In this document: positions 1,876 to 64,000 of the stretch, piece after piece | Position numbering within the stretch: the stretch's first letter is position 1 | How the letters are laid out: each line of letters starts with the position of its first letter | Assembly: GCA_964434425.1 (NCBI GenBank) | Contig: CAYSVH010000013.1 | Span: 13,976 to 77,975 of the forward strand | Direction: 5' to 3' | DNA: 64,000 nt | DNA from: an uncultured Bifidobacteriaceae bacterium | GTDB taxonomy: Bacteria; Actinomycetota; Thermoleophilia; Miltoncostaeales; Miltoncostaeaceae | Position numbers and translations under genes: made by a program | The notes under the pieces: model-generated | Seen by the model: the letters and a program-made list of their open reading frames with translations, nothing else | What the model was told of the DNA's origin: nothing | Databases searched by the model: none

Positions 1876-4218
1876 ATGAACCAGACTCGCACGGTGATCG
1901 GCTCCTCGCTGCCGCCCGCGCGCACACTCCCGTTCCCGCCGAAACCCTCGGGAAGCCTGGCGGGTCGCACGCTCGCAGAGTCGAGGTATTCTCCGCTGCC
2001 GCCCGAGCAGCATCTCGGCGACGACGCACCGAACATCCTCGTGATCCTCATTGATGATGCCGGCCCGGCCTTGCCTGCGCCGATCGGCGGCGCGGTCGAG
2101 ACGCCGACACTGGATCGCATTCGCGCAGAAGGCATCGGGTTCAACCGTTTCCACACCACCGCGATGTGCTCTCCCACGCGAGCCTCGCTGCTCACCGGAA
2201 GGAACCATCACCGAGTGGGCGCCGGCCAGATCGCCGAATTGGCGAACGACTGGGACGGCTACTCGGGGCACATCCCGAAGAGCAGCGCGACGATGGCCGA
2301 GGTGCTGCGCAACTACGGCTACTCGACCGCCGCGTGGGGCAAATGGCACAACACCCCGGCCGAGGAGACGACCAAGGCCGGCCCGTACGAGAACTGGCCA
2401 ACCGGCAACGGCTTCGAGTACTTCTACGGCTTCCTCGCGGGAGAGGCCTCGCAGTACGAGCCGAACCTGGTGCGCAACACCACCTCGGTGCTGCCACCGA
2501 AGTCGCCGGAGGAGGGCTATCACCTCAGCGAGGACATCGCCGACGACGCGATCGCATGGCTGCGCGACCACAAGGCGCTCTCACCCGACAAGCCCTTCTT
2601 CATGTACTGGGCGACCGGCGCCATCCACGGCCCCCACCACGTCCATAAGGAGTGGGCCGACAAGTACAAGGGCGTCTTCGACGACGGCTGGGACGTGTAT
2701 CGCCAGCGCGCGCTTGACGGCGCCAGGGCGGCGGGCTGGGTGCCGGAGGACGCTTCACTCACGCCACGTCCCGAGAGCCTGTCGGGCTGGGACGACATCC
2801 CCGATCATCAGAAGCCCTTCCAGGCGCGTCTCATGGAGGTGTGCGCAGGGTTCGGCGAGCACGCAGATGTTCAGGCGGGCCGTGTCGTCGACGCGCTCGA
2901 GGACCTCGGATACGCCGACAACACGATCGTCGTATACATCTGGGGCGACAACGGCTCGTCGGGCGAGGGCCAGAACGGAACGATCAGCGAACTGCTCGCG
3001 CAGAACATGATCCCGTCGACCGTCGACCAGCACATCGCGACCCTCGAGGAGCTCGGCGGACTGGACGCGCTGGGTACGCCGGCCACCGACAACCAGTACC
3101 ACGCCGCGTGGGCATGGGCGGGCTCGTCTCCGTACCAGGGCATGAAGCTCATGGCATCGCACCTGGGCGGCACGCGCAACCCGATGTTCATGAGCTGGCC
3201 CGGACGCATCACGCACGATCCGGTGCCGCGCACGCAGTTCCACCACGTCATCGACCTCGCACCGACGGTCTACGAGATCCTCGGCATCTCGCACCCGGAG
3301 GTGGTCAACGGCATCCATCAGGACCCGATCGACGGCACGAGCTTCGCCTACGCCGTCGACGATGCCGCCGCCGAGGGCCGCCATCGCACGCAATACTTCG
3401 AGGTCATGGCGAGCCGCGCGATCTACGAAGACGGCTGGATCGCCTCCACGACGGGGCCCCGGCTGCCGTGGGTGCCCGGGTCTCCCCCCGGAATCGCGAC
3501 GTGGACGCCGGATGCCGACATCTGGGAGCTCTACAACCTCGACGAGGACTGGAGTCAGGCGCACGACCTCGCCGCCGACAACCCCGAGAAGGTCGCCCAG
3601 ATGAAGGAGCTCTTCGCGATTGAGGCCGCGAAGAACAAGGTGCTCCCGATCGGCGGCGGTCTGTGGGTGATGCCGTTTCACCCCGAGGACCGCATCTCGG
3701 TGCCGTACACGGAATGGGAGATGACGGGCGACACCGTGCGCGTTCCCGAGTTCTGCGCGCCGGCGCTCGGCAACAGGCCGAACACGGTGAGGATCGAGGC
3801 GAACCTCCCGGAGAGCGCGAACGGGGTGCTGTACAAGCTCGGAGGCTCCGGCGGTGGACTCACGGCCTATCTCGTCGACGGCGTTCTCCACTACGAGTAC
3901 AATCTCTTCCTCATTCAGCGCACCCGGATCGCGGCGTCCGCCCCGGTGCCGGCGGGCGATCATGTGATCGAGATCGAGACGCACTACATCGAGCCTCGGC
4001 CCGGTGGTCCGCTGCGCGTGACGCTGCGAGTCGACGGCGACGAAGTCGGATCCGGAGACGTACCGGTCAGCGCGCCTCTGCTGTTCTCGGCCAACGACTG
4101 CCTCGATATCGGGCGCGCATACGGCGGAGCCGTCTCGCGGGACTATGCGGACCGCATGCCCTTCGCCTTAGACGGGCGGATCGACCGGGTGCACATCACG
4201 TATTCCGCGCCGACGTGA
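1876..4218 (+). CDS. arylsulfatase (formylglycine-dependent sulfatase family)
   Basis: 780 aa. 'ILVILIDDAG' metal site and the 'CSPTRASLLTGRNHH' C-x-P-x-R sulfatase signature. RBS-like 'gaaagga' upstream of the ATG. Confidence 0.9.
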   Translation: MNQTRTVIGSSLPPARTLPFPPKPSGSLAGRTLAESRYSPLPPEQHLGDDAPNILVILIDDAGPALPAPIGGAVETPTLDRIRAEGIGFNRFHTTAMCSPTRASLLTGRNHHRVGAGQIAELANDWDGYSGHIPKSSATMAEVLRNYGYSTAAWGKWHNTPAEETTKAGPYENWPTGNGFEYFYGFLAGEASQYEPNLVRNTTSVLPPKSPEEGYHLSEDIADDAIAWLRDHKALSPDKPFFMYWATGAIHGPHHVHKEWADKYKGVFDDGWDVYRQRALDGARAAGWVPEDASLTPRPESLSGWDDIPDHQKPFQARLMEVCAGFGEHADVQAGRVVDALEDLGYADNTIVVYIWGDNGSSGEGQNGTISELLAQNMIPSTVDQHIATLEELGGLDALGTPATDNQYHAAWAWAGSSPYQGMKLMASHLGGTRNPMFMSWPGRITHDPVPRTQFHHVIDLAPTVYEILGISHPEVVNGIHQDPIDGTSFAYAVDDAAAEGRHRTQYFEVMASRAIYEDGWIASTTGPRLPWVPGSPPGIATWTPDADIWELYNLDEDWSQAHDLAADNPEKVAQMKELFAIEAAKNKVLPIGGGLWVMPFHPEDRISVPYTEWEMTGDTVRVPEFCAPALGNRPNTVRIEANLPESANGVLYKLGGSGGGLTAYLVDGVLHYEYNLFLIQRTRIAASAPVPAGDHVIEIETHYIEPRPGGPLRVTLRVDGDEVGSGDVPVSAPLLFSANDCLDIGRAYGGAVSRDYADRMPFALDGRIDRVHITYSAPT

Positions 4219-11841: not shown

Positions 11842-14800
11842 GTGAACGGATTCTGGATGTCGAAGCGACGAGATGCACGATGGCTCGCGCTCCTGGTGGT
11901 GGGACTGCTGGCCCTGGGACTCACCGGATTCGGCACGTCATTCGTCTCCGCGGAAGGAGGCGCACCGGGCGATACCGACCCGTTCACGCTGGTGGTGGTG
12001 CCCGACACGCAGAAGTACGCCCTCAGCCCGACGCTGCACCAGACTATCGGTGCACAGACCCAGTGGATCGTGGACCGGCGCAACGACCTGAACGTCAAGT
12101 TCGCGGTGCAGGTCGGTGACCTGGTCGAGAACTGGAACAACGCGACCGAGTGGGGGCGCGTCAGCGGTCACTTCCAGACCCTCGACACGGCCGCGCTCCC
12201 CTACGCCGTGCTCAGCGGGAACCACGACATGTCGCAGACCGGGCTCGCACCGCGCTTCGGCGAGTATTTCGGTCCGAGCCGCTTCGTGAACGCAGCGTGG
12301 AACTCGGAGAGCGTCCGTTACGGTGGGTACCTGGGGGACAACCAGTTCGGACCGGATCCGGTCGACCGGTTCAACCAGAACAACTACGCGCTCCTGACCG
12401 CGGGCGGGATGGATCTCCTCCTGCTCCAGCTCGAGTTCGAGTCGCCCGCGTACAGCCTGGCGTGGGCGCAGAAGGTCATCGACGCCCACCCGAACCGCCG
12501 GGTGATCGTCAGCACGCACGGGTTCATCCACACCGGCGGCAACCGTTCCAACACCGTCCTGCGCACCGACGGCAAGAGCGCCAACCAGGTCTGGGACGAG
12601 CTGATCTACCCGAACTGCAACGTGTTCATGGTCCTCAACGGGCACTGGCACGACGGTGACATCGGTGAGGCACGGCGAACCGACGCCAACGCGTGCGGGA
12701 CACCGGTGCACCAGATCCTCACCAACTACCAGAGCCGGGCGAACGGCGGCAACGGCTGGTTGCGCTACTACACTTTCGTCCCGGACCAGAACCGGATCGA
12801 GGCGTACACGTACTCGCCGACGCTCGGCACCTTCGAACAGGACGCCTCCAGCCGGTTCGACCTCGACTACGACATGAGCGGTACCCGTCTGGAGGTCCCG
12901 CTCCGAGGCGGCGACACATGGCGGTATCGCTACAGCGCGGGCACCTGGCCCAGCGGATGGGCCGCCCCGGGGTTCAACGACTCGGCATGGGCGCAGGGAC
13001 GTGCGTCCCTCGGCTTCGGAACGCCGGCGCGAGCAACCGTCGTCGACGTGCCTCCACCGACGTCCAACCGCCCCCTGTCCATGCTCTTCCGCAAGACGTT
13101 CACCGTCGACAACCCCGCCGAGTTGAGTCAGGTCAGAGTCATCACCCGGGCCGACGACGGCATCTCGGTGCGCGTCAACGGGCAGGAGATCGGCCGCCGG
13201 AATCTGCCGACCGGAACCATCAGCCACGCCACCTACGCCACACTCGCACCCAGGACGCACGACGCGACCGGCACTCCGACCGTCTTCGACGTGCCCGACG
13301 GTCTCCTCGTCAACGGCCAGAACGTCATCGCGGTATCGACACATCTGAACTACACGGCGACTCCGGACATCAGCTTCGACGCGACGATCACGGCGATCCG
13401 TGAAGGAGACGGCGGGCCTGTGGTTCCGGCGGCTCCGGTTGTGAGTGGTGGGGTTGAGGGGAACTCGGCGGTGGTGTCGTGGTCACCGGGTGACGGGGCT
13501 GCGCTGTCGGGCTTCGAGGTCTTTCGTGACGGCGTTCGTGTCGCTCAGCCGGGTCCGGCGGTGCGCGAGTATGTGGACTCCTCGGTGGTCCCGGGTGAGC
13601 AGTACCAGTACGGGGTTGTCGCCGTGGGTGCGGGCGGGCTGCGTTCTGAGGTGGCGACGACGGTCGTTCAGGTTCCGGGTGGTGGACCGGGTGTGCCGGA
13701 GGATGTGGTGTTGGTGGCGGAGGGTGTGCAGTGGCGGTGGTTGTTTTCGTCGTCGGCGTGGCCGTCGGGTTGGACGGGTGTGGGTTTTGGTGATGGTTCG
13801 TGGTCGTCGGGGTTGGCTCCGTTGGGTTGGGGTCATGCGTCGATCGCGACGAATATCGATGTGCCGCCGCCGACGTCGAATCGGCCGCGTACGGCGTTGT
13901 TCCGGCGTTCGTTCTCGGTGGTTCGGCCGGGTGAGTTGTCGTCGGTTCGGGTTGTGACGCGTGCGGATGATGGTGTGGCGGTGTGGGTGAACGGCACCGA
14001 GGTGGGGCGTGCCGGGCTTCCGTCGGGGGCGTTGTCGAATCAGACGTATGCGGTTGCGGCGCCGAGGACTCCGGCGGCGATCGCTGCGCCGGTGTCGTTT
14101 GATGTTCCCGTGTCGCTTCTGCGGGAGGGTGAGAACGTGATCGCGGTGTCGGTGCATCACAACTACCGCGGTACCCCCGACATCAGTTTCGACGCCACCA
14201 TCACCGCCGTCCGCACACCCGTCGGCGGGCCTGTGGTTCCGGCGGCTCCGGTTGTGAGTGGTGGGGTTGAGGGGGGTTCGGCGGTGGTGTCGTGGTCACC
14301 GGGTGACGGGGCTGCGCTGTCGGGCTTCGAGGTCTTTCGTGACGGCGTTCGTGTCGCTCAGCCGGGTCCGGCGGTGCGCGAGTATGTGGACTCCTCGGTG
14401 GTCCCGGGTGAGCAGTACCAGTACGGGGTTGTCGCCGTGGGTGCGGGCGGGCTGCGTTCTGAGGTGGCGACGACGGTCGTTCAGGTTCCGGGTGGTGGAC
14501 CGGGTGTGCCGGAGGATGTGGTGTTGGTGGCGGAGGGTGTGCAGTGGCGGTGGTTGTTTTCGTCGTCGGCGTGGCCGTCGGGTTGGACGGGTGTGGGTTT
14601 TGGTGATGGTTCGTGGTCGTCGGGGTTGGCTCCGTTGGGTTGGGGTCATGCGTCGATCGCGACGAATATCGATGTGCCGCCGCCGACGTCGAATCGGCCG
14701 CGTACGGCGTTGTTCCGGCGTTCGTTCTCGGTGGTTCGGCCGGGTGAGTTGTCGTCGGTTCGGGTTGTGACGCGTGCGGATGATGGTGTGGCGGTGTGGG

Positions 14801-15042
14801 TGAACGGCACCGAGGTGGGGCGTGCCGGGCTTCCGTCGGGGGCGTTGTCGAATCAGACGTATGCGGTTGCGGCGCCGAGGACTCCGGCGGCGATCGCTGC
14901 GCCGGTGTCGTTTGATGTTCCCGTGTCGCTTCTGCGGGAGGGTGAGAACGTGATCGCGGTGTCGGTGCATCACAACTACCGCGGTACCCCCGACATCAGT
15001 TTCGACGCGACCATCACCGCCGTCCGCACACCCGCCGGATGA
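11842..15042 (+). CDS. secreted calcineurin-like metallophosphoesterase with three jelly-roll (CBM-like) domains and two Fn3 domains
   Basis: Signal peptide 'WLALLVVGLLALGLTGFGTSFVSAEG'. Phosphoesterase motifs 'VVVPDTQKY', 'VGDLVENWN', 'LSGNHD', 'LNGHWHDG'. Three copies of 'W(R)Y...WPSGW...F.DS.W..G...LG(F/W)G' modules and two 'SW.PGDGAALSGFEVFRDG' Fn3 modules. Alternative ATG at 11857. Confidence 0.85.
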   Translation: MNGFWMSKRRDARWLALLVVGLLALGLTGFGTSFVSAEGGAPGDTDPFTLVVVPDTQKYALSPTLHQTIGAQTQWIVDRRNDLNVKFAVQVGDLVENWNNATEWGRVSGHFQTLDTAALPYAVLSGNHDMSQTGLAPRFGEYFGPSRFVNAAWNSESVRYGGYLGDNQFGPDPVDRFNQNNYALLTAGGMDLLLLQLEFESPAYSLAWAQKVIDAHPNRRVIVSTHGFIHTGGNRSNTVLRTDGKSANQVWDELIYPNCNVFMVLNGHWHDGDIGEARRTDANACGTPVHQILTNYQSRANGGNGWLRYYTFVPDQNRIEAYTYSPTLGTFEQDASSRFDLDYDMSGTRLEVPLRGGDTWRYRYSAGTWPSGWAAPGFNDSAWAQGRASLGFGTPARATVVDVPPPTSNRPLSMLFRKTFTVDNPAELSQVRVITRADDGISVRVNGQEIGRRNLPTGTISHATYATLAPRTHDATGTPTVFDVPDGLLVNGQNVIAVSTHLNYTATPDISFDATITAIREGDGGPVVPAAPVVSGGVEGNSAVVSWSPGDGAALSGFEVFRDGVRVAQPGPAVREYVDSSVVPGEQYQYGVVAVGAGGLRSEVATTVVQVPGGGPGVPEDVVLVAEGVQWRWLFSSSAWPSGWTGVGFGDGSWSSGLAPLGWGHASIATNIDVPPPTSNRPRTALFRRSFSVVRPGELSSVRVVTRADDGVAVWVNGTEVGRAGLPSGALSNQTYAVAAPRTPAAIAAPVSFDVPVSLLREGENVIAVSVHHNYRGTPDISFDATITAVRTPVGGPVVPAAPVVSGGVEGGSAVVSWSPGDGAALSGFEVFRDGVRVAQPGPAVREYVDSSVVPGEQYQYGVVAVGAGGLRSEVATTVVQVPGGGPGVPEDVVLVAEGVQWRWLFSSSAWPSGWTGVGFGDGSWSSGLAPLGWGHASIATNIDVPPPTSNRPRTALFRRSFSVVRPGELSSVRVVTRADDGVAVWVNGTEVGRAGLPSGALSNQTYAVAAPRTPAAIAAPVSFDVPVSLLREGENVIAVSVHHNYRGTPDISFDATITAVRTPAG
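13411..15034 (+). repeat. in-frame head-to-tail tandem duplication, 2 x 813 bp (271 codons each)
   Basis: 13411-14223 and 14224-15034 differ only at 13462-13464 (AAC vs GGT) and 14196 (C vs G at 15009). Out-of-frame ORFs 13445-13957/14258-14770 and 13483-14160/14296-14973 are identical or differ by 1 aa. Confidence 0.95.
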
Positions 15043-43944: not shown

Positions 43945-44292
43945 ATGGCACGTAAACGCGACAGGAACACACGAGACGAGGGAGCCAAGGGCTCCTCGTC
44001 GGGCAAGGCCAAGGGTTCATCGCGCCCTCCGGCCAAGTCGGCGCGCGTGCGCCCGACCCCTGGCGGCAAGAGCCAGAAGGCCGGCTCCTACACGAAGGAC
44101 GTCCAGCAGGGCCGCTCGCGCCGCTTCGTGACCGAGGTCGTCGCGGAGATGAAGAAGGTCAGCTGGCCCACCCGCGTCGAGCTGCTTCAGGCGACCCTCG
44201 TCGTCATCGTGGCCGTCGCGATCATGGCCGTGTTCCTGGGGGGCGCCGACGTTGTCTCCGAGTTCCTCACCGACCGGATCTTCCCCAATTAA
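43945..44292 (+). CDS. secE: preprotein translocase subunit SecE
   Basis: Lys/Arg-rich N-terminus, then 'FVTEVVAEMKKVSWPTRVELLQATLVVIVAVAIMAVFLG'. Conserved position between tRNA-Trp and nusG. Confidence 0.9.
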   Translation: MARKRDRNTRDEGAKGSSSGKAKGSSRPPAKSARVRPTPGGKSQKAGSYTKDVQQGRSRRFVTEVVAEMKKVSWPTRVELLQATLVVIVAVAIMAVFLGGADVVSEFLTDRIFPN

Positions 44293-44458
44293 GATGGCTG
44301 ACTCCACGGTCTCGCGGTGTGGTGCACGTCCCCGGCGGTGCGAGTGCGCCACCGGACGTATCGGAGAGGACACCACCCCGTCTTTCGGCGTCCGGCGGCG
44401 CCCCGCACCCACCGTTGACGCCGCCCACATCCACGATTCCATGGCATCAACCTTCTAG
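44293..44458 (+). repeat. family-E structured repeat, copy E1 (contains an open 54-codon frame 44294-44458)
   Basis: Begins 1 nt after the secE TAA. About 82% identical, without indels, to 46203-46368, and homologous to the reverse complement of 62984-63121. 17-nt terminal inverted repeat and internal hairpins. Confidence 0.8.
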
Positions 44459-44477: not shown

Positions 44478-45002
44478 TTGTTCCACTGGTACGTCATCAA
44501 CACCTACTCCGGCCATGAGGCCAAGGTGAAGCACAACCTGCAGCACCGGATCGTTTCCGCCGGACAGGGCCACATGGTGCGTCAGATCGTGATCCCGACC
44601 GAGCAGGTCGTCGAGACGAAGGACGGCCAGAAGGTCCAGTCCGAGCGCCGTGTTCTGCCGGGATACGTGCTGGTCCAGATGCAGATGACCGACGACTCCT
44701 GGTCGCTCGTCAAGAACACGCCCGGCGTCACCGGCTTTGTCGGCGCCGCCAACACTCCCGCGCCCCTCACGCGTGAGGAGGTCGACCACCTCCTCCGGAC
44801 GCCGACCGAGCAGAAGACCCGCGTCCGCGCGGACTTCGAGATCGGCGAGACCGTCAAGGTCATCGCGGGCCCGCTCTCCGACTTCTCCGGCGAGATCGCC
44901 GAGATCTCGCCGGAGCAGGGTCGCCTCAAGGTGCTCGTCAGCATCTTCGGGCGCGAGACCCCGGCCGAACTCAACTTCGACCAGGTCAAGAAGCTGTCGT
45001 AA
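44478..45002 (+). CDS. nusG: transcription termination/antitermination factor NusG
   Basis: TTG 44478 gives '[20 protein letters not shown]...' (canonical NGN start). KOW '[24 protein letters not shown]'. The longer ORF from 44319 runs through repeat E1 and is rejected. Confidence 0.85.
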
Positions 45003-45494: not shown

Positions 45495-46202
45495 ATGCCC
45501 AAGCACGGAAAGAAGTACCGCCAGGCCGCCGAGGCCATCGAGCCCGGTGTGGCCTACAGCTCGCGTGATGCCGTCCGTCTTCTCAAGGCGCACGAGCTGA
45601 CGCGCTTCGACGCCACCGTCGAGGTCCACTTCCGCCTCGGTGTCAACGTCCGCCACGCCGACCAGCAGCTGCGCGGCACCATCGCGCTCCCCCACGGGAC
45701 CGGCCGCAGCGTCATCGTCGCGGTGTTCGCCGAGGGTGAGAAGGCGCGCGAGGCCGAGGCCGCGGGTGCGGAGGTCGTCGGCGGCGCCGATCTGGCCAAG
45801 CGCATCCAGGAGGGCTTCCTGGACTTCGACATCGTCATCGCCACTCCCGACATGATGGGCGAGGTCGGAAAGCTCGGCCGCGTCCTGGGTCCGGCCGGCA
45901 AGATGCCGAACCCCAAGACCGGCACCGTGACGTTCGACGTGGCGAAGGCCGTCGAGGACGTCAAGGGCGGAAAGGTCGAGTACCGCACGGACCGCACCGG
46001 CATCGTGCACCTCGGCATCGGCAAGTTCTCGTTCTCCGAGGACCAGCTGGTCGACAACTACCAGGCCGTGCTCGACGAGATCATGCGCGCCAAGCCGGCC
46101 GCCGCGAAGGGCCGCTACCTGCGGTCGATCACCCTCACCCAGACGATGGGGCCGGGCATCCCGATCGACACCGCGCAGACCGCCGAAGGAGTGGCCGCCT
46201 AA
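45495..46202 (+). CDS. rplA: 50S ribosomal protein L1
   Basis: '[33 protein letters not shown]...[33 protein letters not shown]'. Confidence 0.95.
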
Positions 46203-46368
46203 GATGGGCGATTCCACGGTCTCGCTGCGTGGTGCACGTCCCCGGCGGCGCGGATGCGCCACCGGGCGACCTGGAAAGGACACCGCCCTGTCCTTCGGCG
46301 CCCGGCGACGCCCCGCATCCACCGTGGCCGCACCCCACATCCACGATCCCATGGAGTCGCCCATCTAG
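46203..46368 (+). repeat. family-E structured repeat, copy E2 (open 54-codon frame 46204-46368)
   Basis: Begins 1 nt after the rplA TAA. Near-perfect 17-nt terminal inverted repeat GATGGGCGATTCCACGG ... CCATGGAGTCGCCCATC. Ends with TAG. Confidence 0.8.
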
Positions 46369-46533
46369 GCGGCCCATCACCAGATACGGGTCGATCGAAG
46401 ACCCACGGGGGCGGCTCTTCCTGAGTCGTCTGAAACCGGCCGAAGGGCCACCCGTGCGAGATCGACGATGTTGCTCCTCTCGGGGAGCCATGTCGTCGCT
46501 TGTCGCGGGGCAACGACATGAGGAGGTGAACAA
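46369..46533 (+). promoter_or_regulatory. putative rplJ (L10) leader region
   Basis: 165-nt untranslated spacer upstream of rplJ with stem-loops (e.g. CGACGATG..GCTCC-TCTC-GGGGAGC..CATGTCGTCG) and an alternative pairing overlapping the SD. This is the position of L10(L12)4 autoregulatory leaders in other bacteria. Confidence 0.35.
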
Positions 46534-47202
46534 CTGAACCGCGAAGAGAAAGCACAGGTCATCGCCGACGTGGTCGAGCGCATGGAGCGCACCGGCACCG
46601 TCGTGGCGGCGGACTTCCGTGGTCTCAGCGTCGCCGATATCACCGAGCTTCGAACGAAGCTGCGGGATGCGGACGCCGAGATGACGATCATCAAGAACAC
46701 GCTGTCACGGCGTGCCGCCGACCAGGTGGGGCGCGACGCCCTCACCCCGTACCTCACGGGTCCGACCGGACTGGTGTGGGTCAACGGTGACCCGGCCGCA
46801 GCCGCAAAGGTGCTCTCCGACTTTGCGAAGGAGCACGAGGAGACGTTCTCCGTCCGCGGAGGAACCCTCGACGGCGAGGATCTTCCGCTGGCCGCACTGC
46901 AGCAGCTGGCAAGCCTGCCGAGCCGCGACGTGCTGCTCGCCAAGCTGGCCGGCGGCATCGCCGCCCCGCTCACGGGTCTGGCCGGTGGCCTCCAGTCGCT
47001 GATCTCGACCTTCGCCCGCACACTCGGCGCCGTCCAGGCATCCGGGCAGCTGGCAGAGGGCTCCGCGCCCGCGGAGCCGGCACCCGCCGACGAGGCACCC
47101 GCCGCTGAGGCGGCCGACGAGGCACCCGCCGAGCCCGAGGCATCCGCCGACGGCGAGGCAGCACCCGACGCCGAGGCGTCGACCGAAACCCCCGAAAGCT
47201 GA
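46534..47202 (+). CDS. rplJ: 50S ribosomal protein L10 (probable CTG start)
   Basis: '(L)NREEKAQVIADVVERMERTGTVVAADFRGLSVADITELRTKLRDADAEMTIIKNTL'. AGGAGG at 46521-46526, 7-nt spacer, CTG 46534. In-frame TGA at 46519. The next canonical start (GTG 46570) would remove the conserved N-terminus. Confidence 0.8.
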   Translation: MNREEKAQVIADVVERMERTGTVVAADFRGLSVADITELRTKLRDADAEMTIIKNTLSRRAADQVGRDALTPYLTGPTGLVWVNGDPAAAAKVLSDFAKEHEETFSVRGGTLDGEDLPLAALQQLASLPSRDVLLAKLAGGIAAPLTGLAGGLQSLISTFARTLGAVQASGQLAEGSAPAEPAPADEAPAAEAADEAPAEPEASADGEAAPDAEASTETPES

Positions 47203-52789: not shown

Positions 52790-52813
52790 GTGCTCGATGG
52801 GTGACTCCTAGCC

Positions 52814-62987: not shown

Positions 62988-63121
62988 GTGGTGGTCCGCT
63001 CCGCGGAGTCGTGGATGTGGGGTGCGTCAACCGAGGCCGGCCTGGGGTGGGCGGGTGGACGGGTGGCGCATCTGCGCGGCCGGTGGTGTGCACCACGCCA
63101 TGGGATCGCGGAGTCGGCCAT
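62984..63121 (-). repeat. family-E structured repeat, copy E3 (shorter; open 45-codon frame)
   Basis: The reverse complement ATGGCCGACTCCGCG...GGTGCAC...GATGCGCCACC...CCCCACATCCACGACTCC aligns with E1/E2 with a 27-nt internal deletion. It starts directly after the ABC exporter TAG, and its TGA overlaps the kinase ATG. Confidence 0.7.
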
Positions 63122-64000
63122 CTAGACCGTTGTCCGCTCGTTCGACCGGCGGCCGGGATGGAACGCGCCGTCCTCCAGCCGGACCACCCGGTCGGCGCGG
63201 GCGATCATCTCGGGATCGTGCGTGATCATGAGGACCGTACGGCCCCGGCGCAGCTCGGTGAGGGGGGCGGTCATGGCTTCGCGGCCCGCTGCGTCGAGGC
63301 CGGTGGTGGGCTCGTCGAGTACGACGATCGGTGCGTCGTGGAGCAGGGCGCGGGCGATGGCCAGTCGTTGCCGCTGCCCGCCGGACAGGCGTCGTCCGCG
63401 CTGGCCGACGTGCGATGCCAGGCCGTCCGGGAGGGCCGCGACGACCGCGTCCGCGCCCGAACGCAGGAGTGCGTTCGCGATCTCGTCGTCGGACGCGCCG
63501 GGGCGGCCGAGCTCGAGGTTGCGTCGGACGGTTCCGTTGAAGACGAGGGTCTCCTGGAGGAGAAGGGTGACGTTCTGGCGGAGTGACGCCAACGATAGTG
63601 ACCGGATGTCGGTGCCGTCGATCGTGATGCGTCCGGAGTCCGGGTCGTGGAAGCGCACGAGGAGCTTCGCGAGTGTCGACTTCCCCGCTCCGTTGTCCCC
63701 GATGATGGCCACACACTCCCCGGGGCGCACATCGAATGATGCGGAGCGCAGCGTCGGTCGCTGCACGCCGGGATAGGTGAAGGTGACGTCTTGGACGAAG
63801 AGCTCGCCGCGGGCGCGCCCGATGTCGAGGGCGTTCTCCGCCTCGGTGATGTGGACACGCTGGTCCATGACGTCGATGACACGCTCGGCGGACGCGGCGG
63901 CGGTGAACAGCGAGTTGACGATCGCCCCCAGTTCGCGGACGGGGCTGTAGAGCTGGCTGAGGTACGCGAGGAAGACGAGGAGCCCGCCGAGCGTGAGGCG
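63122..64000 (-). CDS. ABC exporter, fused permease/ATPase, C-terminal part (5' end outside window)
   Basis: 'GDNGAGKSTLAKLL', 'LSGGQRQRLAIARALL', 'VVLDEPTTGLD'. The frame stays open to base 64000 ('...LTLGGLLVFLAYLSQLYSPVRELG' is a TMD6 region). Confidence 0.85.
   Translation of the reverse strand, partial: RLTLGGLLVFLAYLSQLYSPVRELGAIVNSLFTAAASAERVIDVMDQRVHITEAENALDIGRARGELFVQDVTFTYPGVQRPTLRSASFDVRPGECVAIIGDNGAGKSTLAKLLVRFHDPDSGRITIDGTDIRSLSLASLRQNVTLLLQETLVFNGTVRRNLELGRPGASDDEIANALLRSGADAVVAALPDGLASHVGQRGRRLSGGQRQRLAIARALLHDAPIVVLDEPTTGLDAAGREAMTAPLTELRRGRTVLMITHDPEMIARADRVVRLEDGAFHPGRRSNERTTV

Follow-up and report, generated by a model that had tools for sequence, protein, structure and literature searches.

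A candidate new family of miniature inverted-repeat elements at operon stop codons in uncultured Thermoleophilia-like bacteria

Family E and its copies in the window

In the 64,000-nt stretch of contig CAYSVH010000013.1 analyzed here (the window), a palindromic repeat of about 165 nt, referred to as family E, follows the stop codons of secE, rplA, and an ABC exporter gene. On the evidence of sequence comparison, its assignment as a selfish element of the MITE type (miniature inverted-repeat transposable element), new as a family, is secure. The full reading, in which family E is an undescribed, non-autonomous, and non-coding bacterial MITE-type element of a narrow, uncultured Thermoleophilia-like clade, is in our view probable. 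Generic MITE features are present: a non-coding unit of <300 bp, terminal inverted repeats (TIRs), dispersed copies, and orthologous sites that are filled in some genomes and empty in others.

An earlier note on this DNA had described three copies, E1 to E3, each co-oriented with the gene whose stop codon it abuts. All three are present, homologous, and oriented as described, and no fourth full copy lies anywhere in the 64-kb window. E1 and E2 are equal in length and differ at 30 of 165 nt with 0 indels (82% identity, blastn E = 1.5e-38), close to the ~30 substitutions reported before. In nhmmer searches, E1 matched the family profile at E = 1e-46 and the homology of E3 to the family was found at E = 8.6e-22. 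E3 is now taken to run from 63122 to 62988 on the minus strand. It shares its first G with the TAG stop of the exporter gene (Pfam ABC_tran), and its last bases overlap the ATG of the following kinase gene (Pfam Pkinase). The family unit measures 163-166 nt with TIRs GATGGTTGATTCCACG / CGTGGAATCAACCATC of 16-17 nt, where 17 nt had been given for E1 and E2. The TIRs match at 16 of 16 positions in the copy of L034 (loci from other genomes carry L numbers) and show 0-4 mismatches in other copies. The features in the window are as follows:

44293..44458, plus strand: E1, full-length copy filling the secE-nusG spacer; 163-nt palindromic body (GATGG..CTTC) followed by TAG
44290..44292, plus strand: secE stop codon TAA; E1 starts at the next base
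43945-44292, plus strand: secE open reading frame (ORF), identified as SecE from synteny with L042
44293..44308, plus strand: 5' TIR of E1, GATGGCTGACTCCACG
44440..44455, plus strand: 3' TIR of E1, CATGGCATCAACCTTC, followed by TAG at 44456-44458
44332..44355, plus strand: local 24-nt hairpin module in E1, CCGG-CGGTGCG-AGT-GCGCCA-CCGG
44425..44436, plus strand: CCACATCCACGA, the invariant subterminal block of the family, unchanged in 10/10 and 12/12 aligned copies
44478..45002, plus strand: nusG with a TTG start, 19 nt past E1; identified by length and synteny with L042 8985-9509
46203..46368, plus strand: E2, full-length copy at the rplA stop codon; insertion specific to the lineage of the window
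46200..46202, plus strand: rplA stop codon TAA, TAG in all relatives; E2 begins at the next base
62988..63122, minus strand: E3, copy with a ~30-nt internal deletion and a diverged 3' end, reaching from the ABC exporter stop to the ATG of the Ser/Thr kinase gene
52796..52811, plus strand: remnant GATGGGTGACTCC + TAG at the junction of a response regulator and a HEAT-repeat gene; the 5' 13 nt of the element fused to its terminal TAG

The 24-nt hairpin module is kept in all copies, and in the diverged copy L042c it is preserved through a compensatory C-G to U-A change (pair 112/135; CG 9, UA 2).

Distribution of the family

Outside the window, 10 further copies were identified at eight other sites, in three to four related uncultured Thermoleophilia-like metagenome-assembled genomes (MAGs). 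The total sample is thus 13 copies at 11 sites, all from MAGs or metagenome fragments. A first scan used a pattern made from two invariant blocks and covered one genome per species (185,579 species). It returned 39 loci, six of them real (L001, L017, L022, L023, L027, and L034) and 33 chance matches. L001 belongs to an 'uncultured actinobacterium' MAG, L017, L022, and L023 to one MAG, and L027 and L034 to another. A stricter pattern, matching all ten copies known at that point, was run on the JGI metagenomes and matched two contigs only, L040 and L041, the site of the latter being identical to L023. One diverged copy, in L042/L043, was added by nhmmer. Tandem pairs of the element occur in L027 and L040. 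Beyond these loci, no copy of family E was found in the 185,579 species genomes or the JGI metagenomes. A plasmid or phage origin was rejected, as there was no match in the plasmid collection or in viral contigs.

Pairwise identity among the copies is 79-88%, within and between genomes alike. The family was seen only in lineages with an RplA at least 92% identical to that of the window, and was absent from the 16-20 kb around rplA in relatives at 87% RplA identity. Where the relatives of the RplA and the kinase of the window have source names, these are Thermoleophilia or Miltoncostaeaceae. The MAGs of L017, L022, L023, L027, and L034 have a G+C content of 68-70% and carry GenBank titles of 'uncultured Bifidobacteriaceae', a label that looks wrong in view of the named relatives.

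The earlier note had held that absence of further copies would make the repeat a local duplication, and the ten additional copies at unrelated loci in other genomes speak directly against this. Three copies do lie within 19 kb, and a 54-codon ORF is open in E1 and E2, but with E-values of 1e-38 to 1e-51, local duplication, chance similarity, or a small protein gene (see below) is close to negligible as an explanation. The sites outside the window have the following contexts:

single copy after valS and before a folC-like gene
single copy after rplU and before rpmA
tandem pair between an unknown gene and glgB
tandem pair ahead of lon
single copy after a response regulator and before a HEAT-repeat gene (L042)
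ribBA-ribH, element, and a convergent helix-turn-helix (HTH) regulator (L034)
single copy between a divergent truA and a short ORF at the edge of a contig
single copy where the sequence is poorly coding (L001)

In L034, a G+C-rich hairpin with a T-rich tail (GGCCTCGCTCGCCTGAGCGAGGCC TCTTTCTC; 3014-3040, minus strand) overlaps the ribH stop and ends at the element. As it abuts the element, the latter would have landed just past an intrinsic-terminator-like site in a convergent spacer.

Empty, filled, and decayed sites

The orthologous sites of relatives were compared with those of the window, the closest relative being L042 (GCA_964531025.1), with an RplA 98% identical to that of the window and ~80-96% DNA identity. 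The E2 site is empty in five lineages with RplA identities of 87-98%, where the rplA stop reads (C)CTAG (L042/43, L045/46/49, L050, and L051) or GTAG (L047/48). The junction in the window is GCC TAA [GATGG...CCCATC] TAG GC, compared with ...GCC TAG G/C... in the relatives, and E2 is a clean 166-nt insertion limited to the lineage of the window. No element is present at the E3 site in L053-L059 (three lineages), where the exporter and kinase genes overlap as GTCTGATGG. In relatives with 92% and 80% kinase identity the overlap is 1 base (GTC TGATGG), and the element is also missing in a relative with 70% kinase identity.

The secE-nusG spacer has a different record. L045/L046 (95% RplA identity) have a 53-nt internally deleted copy at the E1 site, GATGGTCGAGT...GCATCCCACATCCACGATTCCATC TAG, and in L042 the site is reduced to TAA-GAACCCCGGC-TAG, while nothing of the element was found there in relatives at 87% RplA identity. 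The insertion of E1 is older. The comparison of secE-nusG and rplA-rplJ spacers that had been proposed earlier gave, in short, empty sites for the second and remnants or nothing for the first. A reciprocal case is the response-regulator/HEAT junction, with a full diverged copy in L042 vs a 13-nt remnant and TAG in the window.

Taken together, the filled, empty, and remnant orthologous sites argue strongly that family E inserted repeatedly while the clade diverged and that copies were lost through internal deletion. By the same comparisons, de novo insertion is shown by E2 and E3, which are missing from the orthologous sites of sister lineages, and persistence across speciation by the E1 and L042c sites, which lineages have in common as remnants. 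The tandem pairs likewise show that dimers can form.

Two further observations concern these junctions. In a third lineage, the response-regulator/HEAT junction holds an unrelated 193-nt insert with inverted ends of its own (GTGTCCCCGG...CCCCAGGACAC), at L056 12458-12650, L057 12173-12366, and L058 10332-10525 (minus strand). This insert is not repeated in the window or in the related loci sequence examined, and two different elements seem to have struck this one junction. The remainder of the rplA-rplJ spacer past E2 (window 46369-46570) is conserved in relatives with 87-98% RplA identity (GGGTCGATCGAAGACCCACGGGG...GAGGAGGTGAACAAC). It gave no match to the Rfam L10_leader even at E <= 5, and may be an rplJ leader variant outside the coverage of Rfam.

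Target site and stop codons

The consensus junctions are CTA/GATGG...CCATC/TAG (slashes mark the ends of the element). The empty E2 site is CCTAGG, and CTAG is found at the empty site in four of the five lineages. On the right, TA(G) flanks the element in 9 of 11 copies. On the left, CTA/GATGG is found in E3, L027a, and L001, and TA adjoins the end in only 3 of 12 copies (the 12 left flanks being TAA, TAA, CTA, GGA, CTT, CTC, CTA, TGA, TGA, CTA, CCA, and CGA). The filled E2 site reads CC-TAA-[element]-TAG-G vs CCTAGG when empty, and the target duplication is exact in no copy. Tandem copies are 2-3 nt apart, the spacing that would result from insertion of one copy into the CTAG created by another.

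CTAG is a rare sequence in this 69% G+C genome. The window contains 14, compared with 182 expected from base composition (~13-fold depletion), and the ends of the element together with the remnant make up five of these. Among ~51 ORFs of the window picked by third-position G+C, the stop codons are TGA in 32, TAG in 12, and TAA in seven, and the 12 TAG stops divide into eight GTAG and four CTAG. Of the four C-TAG stops, two carry the element, as do two of the seven TAA stops; the eight G-TAG stops are all free of it. Wherever a gene abuts the element, its in-frame stop is kept (TAA-G, TAG-A, T-TGA-TGG, or AGA-TGA).

The suggestion that the repeat is a MITE with a TA-type target is supported by the empty and decayed orthologous sites, by flanks that fit TA in CTAG, and by dispersal at unrelated loci. 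The companion idea, that its association with stop codons follows from the rarity of the target, agrees with the CTAG counts. In the mechanism that we propose, family E would integrate into TA, preferably within CTAG, as do IS630/Tc1-type or IS5/IS427-type DDE transposons. Insertion into TA/CTAG combined with CTAG depletion would account for the association with stop codons, and the CTAG sites at which insertion is tolerated would essentially be C-TAG/TAA stops and stop/start overlaps within operons. As the element starts with G, the junction TA/G would rebuild the stop codon of the upstream gene, and the element would merely lengthen the intercistronic spacer. Some IS5/IS427 elements are also consistent with TA insertion and a preference for CTAG. 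For IS630, TA within CTAG is the target according to Tenzen & Ohtsubo 1991, as cited in PMC2170065.

Folding and orientation

Every copy folds end to end into a single long imperfect hairpin. Sense folds range from -52 to -112 kcal/mol (E1 -87 kcal/mol, z -5.9; E2 -91 kcal/mol, z -5.1). Antisense folds range from -79 to -129 kcal/mol; in the ten copies that are full-length and have kept their core intact, the range is -97 to -129 kcal/mol. E1 gives -111 kcal/mol on this strand, and the two copies tested have z of -9.6 and -11.3. Aligning each copy to its own reverse complement, we counted 125 transition-type mismatches that are A·C on the sense strand, equivalent to G·U on the antisense strand, vs only seven that are G·T on the sense strand. 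In the 68-pair consensus hairpin, 95% of cells pair on the antisense strand (523 Watson-Crick and 126 G·U), vs 78% on the sense strand. The asymmetry is retained with DNA folding parameters (antisense -66 vs sense -51 kcal/mol).

The antisense alignment contains 15 pairs that changed on both sides, a number reached in 0 of 500 shuffles, and the structure retains 91% pairing vs 33-50% when the partners are slid. Positions that are mostly G·U vary to G-C or A-U in other copies, not to A·C. A mutational strand bias was rejected as the source of the wobble asymmetry, the spectra relative to the consensus being roughly symmetric (C>T 14/43, G>A 18/63). Deamination of the non-transcribed strand was rejected as well, as it predicts the opposite sign. 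The compensatory changes, together with the unbiased substitution spectra, argue that pairing on the antisense strand has been under selection during diversification of the family.

The plus strand of the element is the sense strand at every site with a judgeable flanking gene (8-10 copies). Eight sites are firm (secE-nusG, rplA-rplJ, ABC-kinase, valS-folC, rplU-rpmA, X-glgB, X-lon, and RR-HEAT, where X is the gene or sequence of the contexts above and RR a response regulator; 8/8, two-sided binomial p = 0.008). The element is also sense in L034 relative to ribH and in L022 relative to a truncated downstream ORF. E3 is inverted with respect to E1 and E2 within 19 kb, as are its genes, and orientation therefore follows transcription, not replication. 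The direction of replication itself could not be read from the window, whose GC skew is too weak for this. The earlier note had taken random orientation and empty sites in relatives as signs of an ordinary MITE. The empty sites were found, but the orientation is not random, all judgeable copies being sense. The combination of strict sense orientation and conserved antisense structure is the one aspect of family E that could be mechanistically new.

Coding capacity and RNA readings

The mini-ORF (ATG..TAG, 54 codons) that is open in E1 and E2 was considered as a small protein gene and rejected. Differences between E1 and E2 fall at codon positions 1 to 3 in the numbers 10/8/12, 17 of 25 differing codons are non-synonymous, indels break the frame in 4 of the 11 copies, and no match to a profile built from the translations turned up among 5.8 billion predicted proteins. 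With less confidence, we regard the mini-ORF as a by-product of the element. Known RNA families were also rejected: Rfam identified only two tRNAs in the window and left the elements unmatched on both strands, at the gathering threshold as well as at E <= 5, in line with the earlier failure to recognize a described RNA family. No promoter-like sites were found, and the single terminator-like match lies inside nusG, away from the elements, so that an intrinsic terminator or promoter was likewise rejected. An integron attC site was excluded since the ends, 5'-GTTGATT...AATCAAC-3', have the reverse polarity to 5'-RYYYAAC...GTTRRRY-3' boxes; moreover, these ends vary between copies, and it is housekeeping operons rather than cassette arrays that contain the copies. 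Among relatives of window 45495-46202, two over-long 'RplA' sequences from short ENA contigs, P0002 (367 aa) and P0109 (328 aa), are internal duplications or chimeras of L1, probably assembly artefacts, and do not represent read-through into the element. P0002 had been suspected of read-through into the element, but is a chimeric duplication instead.

A host-serving RNA transcribed in the sense direction could be a stabilizing stem-loop, a processing stem-loop, or an AUG..UAG mini-ORF that keeps downstream translation coupled, as proposed for MIRUs. Such a role would suit copies that are strictly sense and abut the upstream stop, with the downstream start 2-23 nt past the element at seven of nine sites and the mini-ORF stop overlapping the next start in E3, L017, and L027b. 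The sense strand also folds better than shuffled sequence (z ~ -5 to -6). The pairing preserved in evolution belongs to the other strand, however, the same essential operons of sister lineages work without the element, and copies have decayed to remnants of 53 nt and 13 nt. In addition, the frame is broken in the 4 of 11 copies mentioned, substitutions ignore codon position, and an equally open ATG frame exists on the reverse strand because the ends are symmetric. The earlier statement that a transcribed sense RNA fits equally well is thus not upheld, given 78% sense vs 95% antisense pairing, the sister operons lacking the element, and the decay of copies; we consider such a role improbable.

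Still less probable is a feature of the antisense-strand RNA kept by the host, such as a one-way barrier, or a terminator without a U-tract, against antisense or convergent transcription into operons, or a terminator where the element faces a convergent gene. The conserved minus-strand structure (-97 to -129 kcal/mol) would agree with it, and in L034 the strongly folding strand is sense for the convergent HTH gene, whose TAG lies in the end of the element. But this is the only convergent case, there is no U-tract and no promoter-like site, and a function maintained by the host is hard to reconcile with sites that are polymorphic for the insertion and with copies that decay.

Mechanism of movement

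The less certain half of the MITE reading is the mover, which would be some DDE transposase. With less confidence, we also suggest that between co-transcribed genes only the orientation that places the poorly pairing, C-rich strand in the mRNA would survive. In the opposite orientation, the mRNA would contain a near-perfect 68-bp hairpin, at which the operon transcript could be blocked or cut. The conserved antisense pairing may in turn serve the element rather than the host, through a single strand (ssDNA or RNA) that the element requires to propagate.

Several points weigh against this explanation. No transposase gene and no full-length insertion sequence (IS) with matching ends was found in the ~350 kb of the window and related loci, nor was any larger element bounded by the family E TIRs. 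A perfect TA on either side is seen in none of the copies, and a ragged left junction stands against a conserved TAG on the right; to agree with a TA duplication, the flanks would have to have changed secondarily. If a DDE enzyme acts on double-stranded ends, there is no evident reason why the terminal repeats should show compensatory changes, or why mismatches along all 68 pairs should be wobbles on one strand only. The sense hairpin is itself very stable (-62 to -112 kcal/mol), and the difference in harm between the two orientations is conjecture. Finally, the 13 copies at 11 sites come from fragments rather than complete genomes.

Some of these points would be met by a hairpin transposon that moves as a single strand, similar to REPIN, PATE, or TIRYT elements, with an HUH/Y1 tyrosine transposase (a relative of IS200/IS605 or RAYT enzymes). 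The enzyme would recognize the folded minus strand and insert it beside a strand-specific CTA (TAG on the gene strand) without duplication, and such a strand-specific target would automatically fix the sense orientation at stops. The wobble asymmetry (125 vs 7) and the better pairing of the minus strand (95% vs 78%) favor this, as do the 15 pairs changed on both sides (0/500 shuffles) and the persistence of the asymmetry with DNA parameters. One flank is conserved (TAG/CTA, 9/11) and the other variable, and a clean duplication is seen in no copy. RAYT-like genes flanked by families of long TIR repeats have been documented (PMC3733652). On the other hand, terminal 16-nt inverted repeats are typical of DDE elements, the copies have neither a GTAG tag nor a GGGGWSAS motif, and no Y1 transposase is among the called genes of the related loci examined. 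Within one replichore segment, E3 points the other way from E1 and E2, whereas IS200/IS605 insertions follow replication, and RAYTs and REPs are known mainly from Proteobacteria. An HUH/Y1 mechanism, the main rival to DDE, accounts better for the asymmetric wobbles, for a flank conserved on one side only, and for duplications that are never clean. It accounts less well for terminal repeats that are perfect and for an orientation tied to transcription instead of replication. Overall we consider it rather unlikely.

A transposon that is oriented by transcription and seeks stop codons, its folded antisense strand inserting beside TAG on the exposed non-template strand, is a distinctly unlikely further variant. 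Transcription-coupled insertion of a single strand would explain why copies are strictly sense, why conservation is limited to one flank, and why the target is not duplicated. We know of no DDE MITE for which transcription-oriented stop-codon seeking has been described, and IS200/IS605 elements orient to replication.

The MITE reading has several consequences. Family E would be a new MITE family for Thermoleophilia, a class for which we found no interspersed repeats described. It would be a mobile element that colonizes the tightest junctions of essential operons (secE-nusG, rplA-rplJ, rplU-rpmA, and valS-folC) harmlessly by rebuilding the stop. For annotation, it would account for oversized spacers and spurious small ORFs in these MAGs, and the presence or absence of copies could serve as strain-typing markers. 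Its sense orientation combined with antisense pairing offers a clean natural test of whether bacterial MITEs owe their orientation bias to selection acting on transcripts or to the way in which they insert.

Other observations in the window and its relatives

Two pairs of window ORFs, each of identical length within the pair, lie 813 bp apart (13445-13957/14258-14770 and 13483-14160/14296-14973). Both pairs fall inside a 1066-aa ORF (11842-15042) with metallophosphoesterase, fn3, and CBM-like domains, which indicates an internal tandem duplication of ~813 bp. In relatives, a second gene with a Ribosomal_L12 C-terminal domain (PF00542) is located 0.5-3 kb downstream of the canonical rplL, and the window probably has one too, around 52.2 kb. 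Its positions in relatives are:

L042 15278-15643: second PF00542 gene
L043 6726-7052: second PF00542 gene
L046 4623-4988: second PF00542 gene

Comparison with known elements

REP/REPIN repeats with RAYT, and TIR repeats with TIRYT, are extragenic hairpins thought to move as single strands; REP-type repeats are located mostly downstream of ORFs, between unidirectional or convergent genes, form dimers, and have one conserved terminal tag (PMC3733652). REPs are units of 20-40 bp with a GTAG or CGTC tag, whereas family E has neither tag, and combines (C)TAG/ATGG termini with a stem of 68 pairs and TIRs of 16 nt. No RAYT or other Y1/HUH gene flanked by repeats was found among the genes called in related loci. 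The IS200/IS605-derived PATE elements have neither TIRs nor a target duplication, and their orientation follows replication; the 16-nt TIRs of family E and an orientation that follows gene direction set it apart.

RUP/IS630-Spn1 and other IS630/Tc1-mariner MITEs are small TIR elements with a TA target and TA at both termini that nest in one another (PMC2229807, PMC2170065). The consensus flanks of family E are CTAG...CTAG, but its TA duplication is not clean. Unlike family E, RUP is interrupted by stop codons in every frame, and no rule of orientation has been reported for it. The Correia elements of Neisseria (CREE/NEMIS; 100-155 bp) have TIRs and a TA duplication and are co-transcribed, and the hairpin in the transcript is a substrate of RNase III (PMC2229807, PMC3049150), so that orientation and pairing quality matter for the fate of the mRNA. 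Only their 24-26-bp ends pair, they carry IHF sites and promoters, and they belong to a different phylum and show no homology to family E.

ERIC (IRU) and YPAL (RU-2) elements are imperfect palindromes of 127-168 bp with short terminal inverted repeats and 5'-TA-3' termini, located in transcribed intergenic regions near ORFs and with no cognate transposase known (PMC2229807, PMC3049150). YPAL, at 168 bp, has a 56-codon open reading frame, and orientation-dependent effects on flanking mRNA have been reported for ERIC (PMC2229807, PMC3049150). Family E shares with them the full-length palindrome, TA termini, an open frame, and the lack of a known transposase. It differs from these elements of enterobacteria and Yersinia in phylum and shows no sequence similarity to them, and it is strictly sense in our sample, located on stop codons, and asymmetric in its one-strand wobble pairs, a property that we did not find described for ERIC or YPAL (PMC2229807, PMC3049150).

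MIRUs (mycobacterial interspersed repetitive units) are actinobacterial repeats of co-transcribed intercistronic operon spacers with empty and filled sites between species; their small ORFs have ends that overlap neighboring genes, and translational coupling has been proposed (PMC3184786). Tetranucleotide direct repeats have been reported at filled MIRU sites. Family E resembles MIRUs in being actinobacterial, intercistronic, and co-oriented, with ends overlapping the neighboring genes. In 1997, Supply et al. reportedly described MIRUs as co-oriented with their flanking genes. MIRUs are, however, direct tandem units of 40-100 bp (variable number tandem repeats), whereas family E is a 165-nt palindrome with two dimers only and without similarity to them. 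Family E fails the defining features of MIRU, REP, attC, and IS200/IS605 derivatives. In architecture it is closest to ERIC and YPAL, and in genomic behavior to MIRUs, none of which shares sequence with it.

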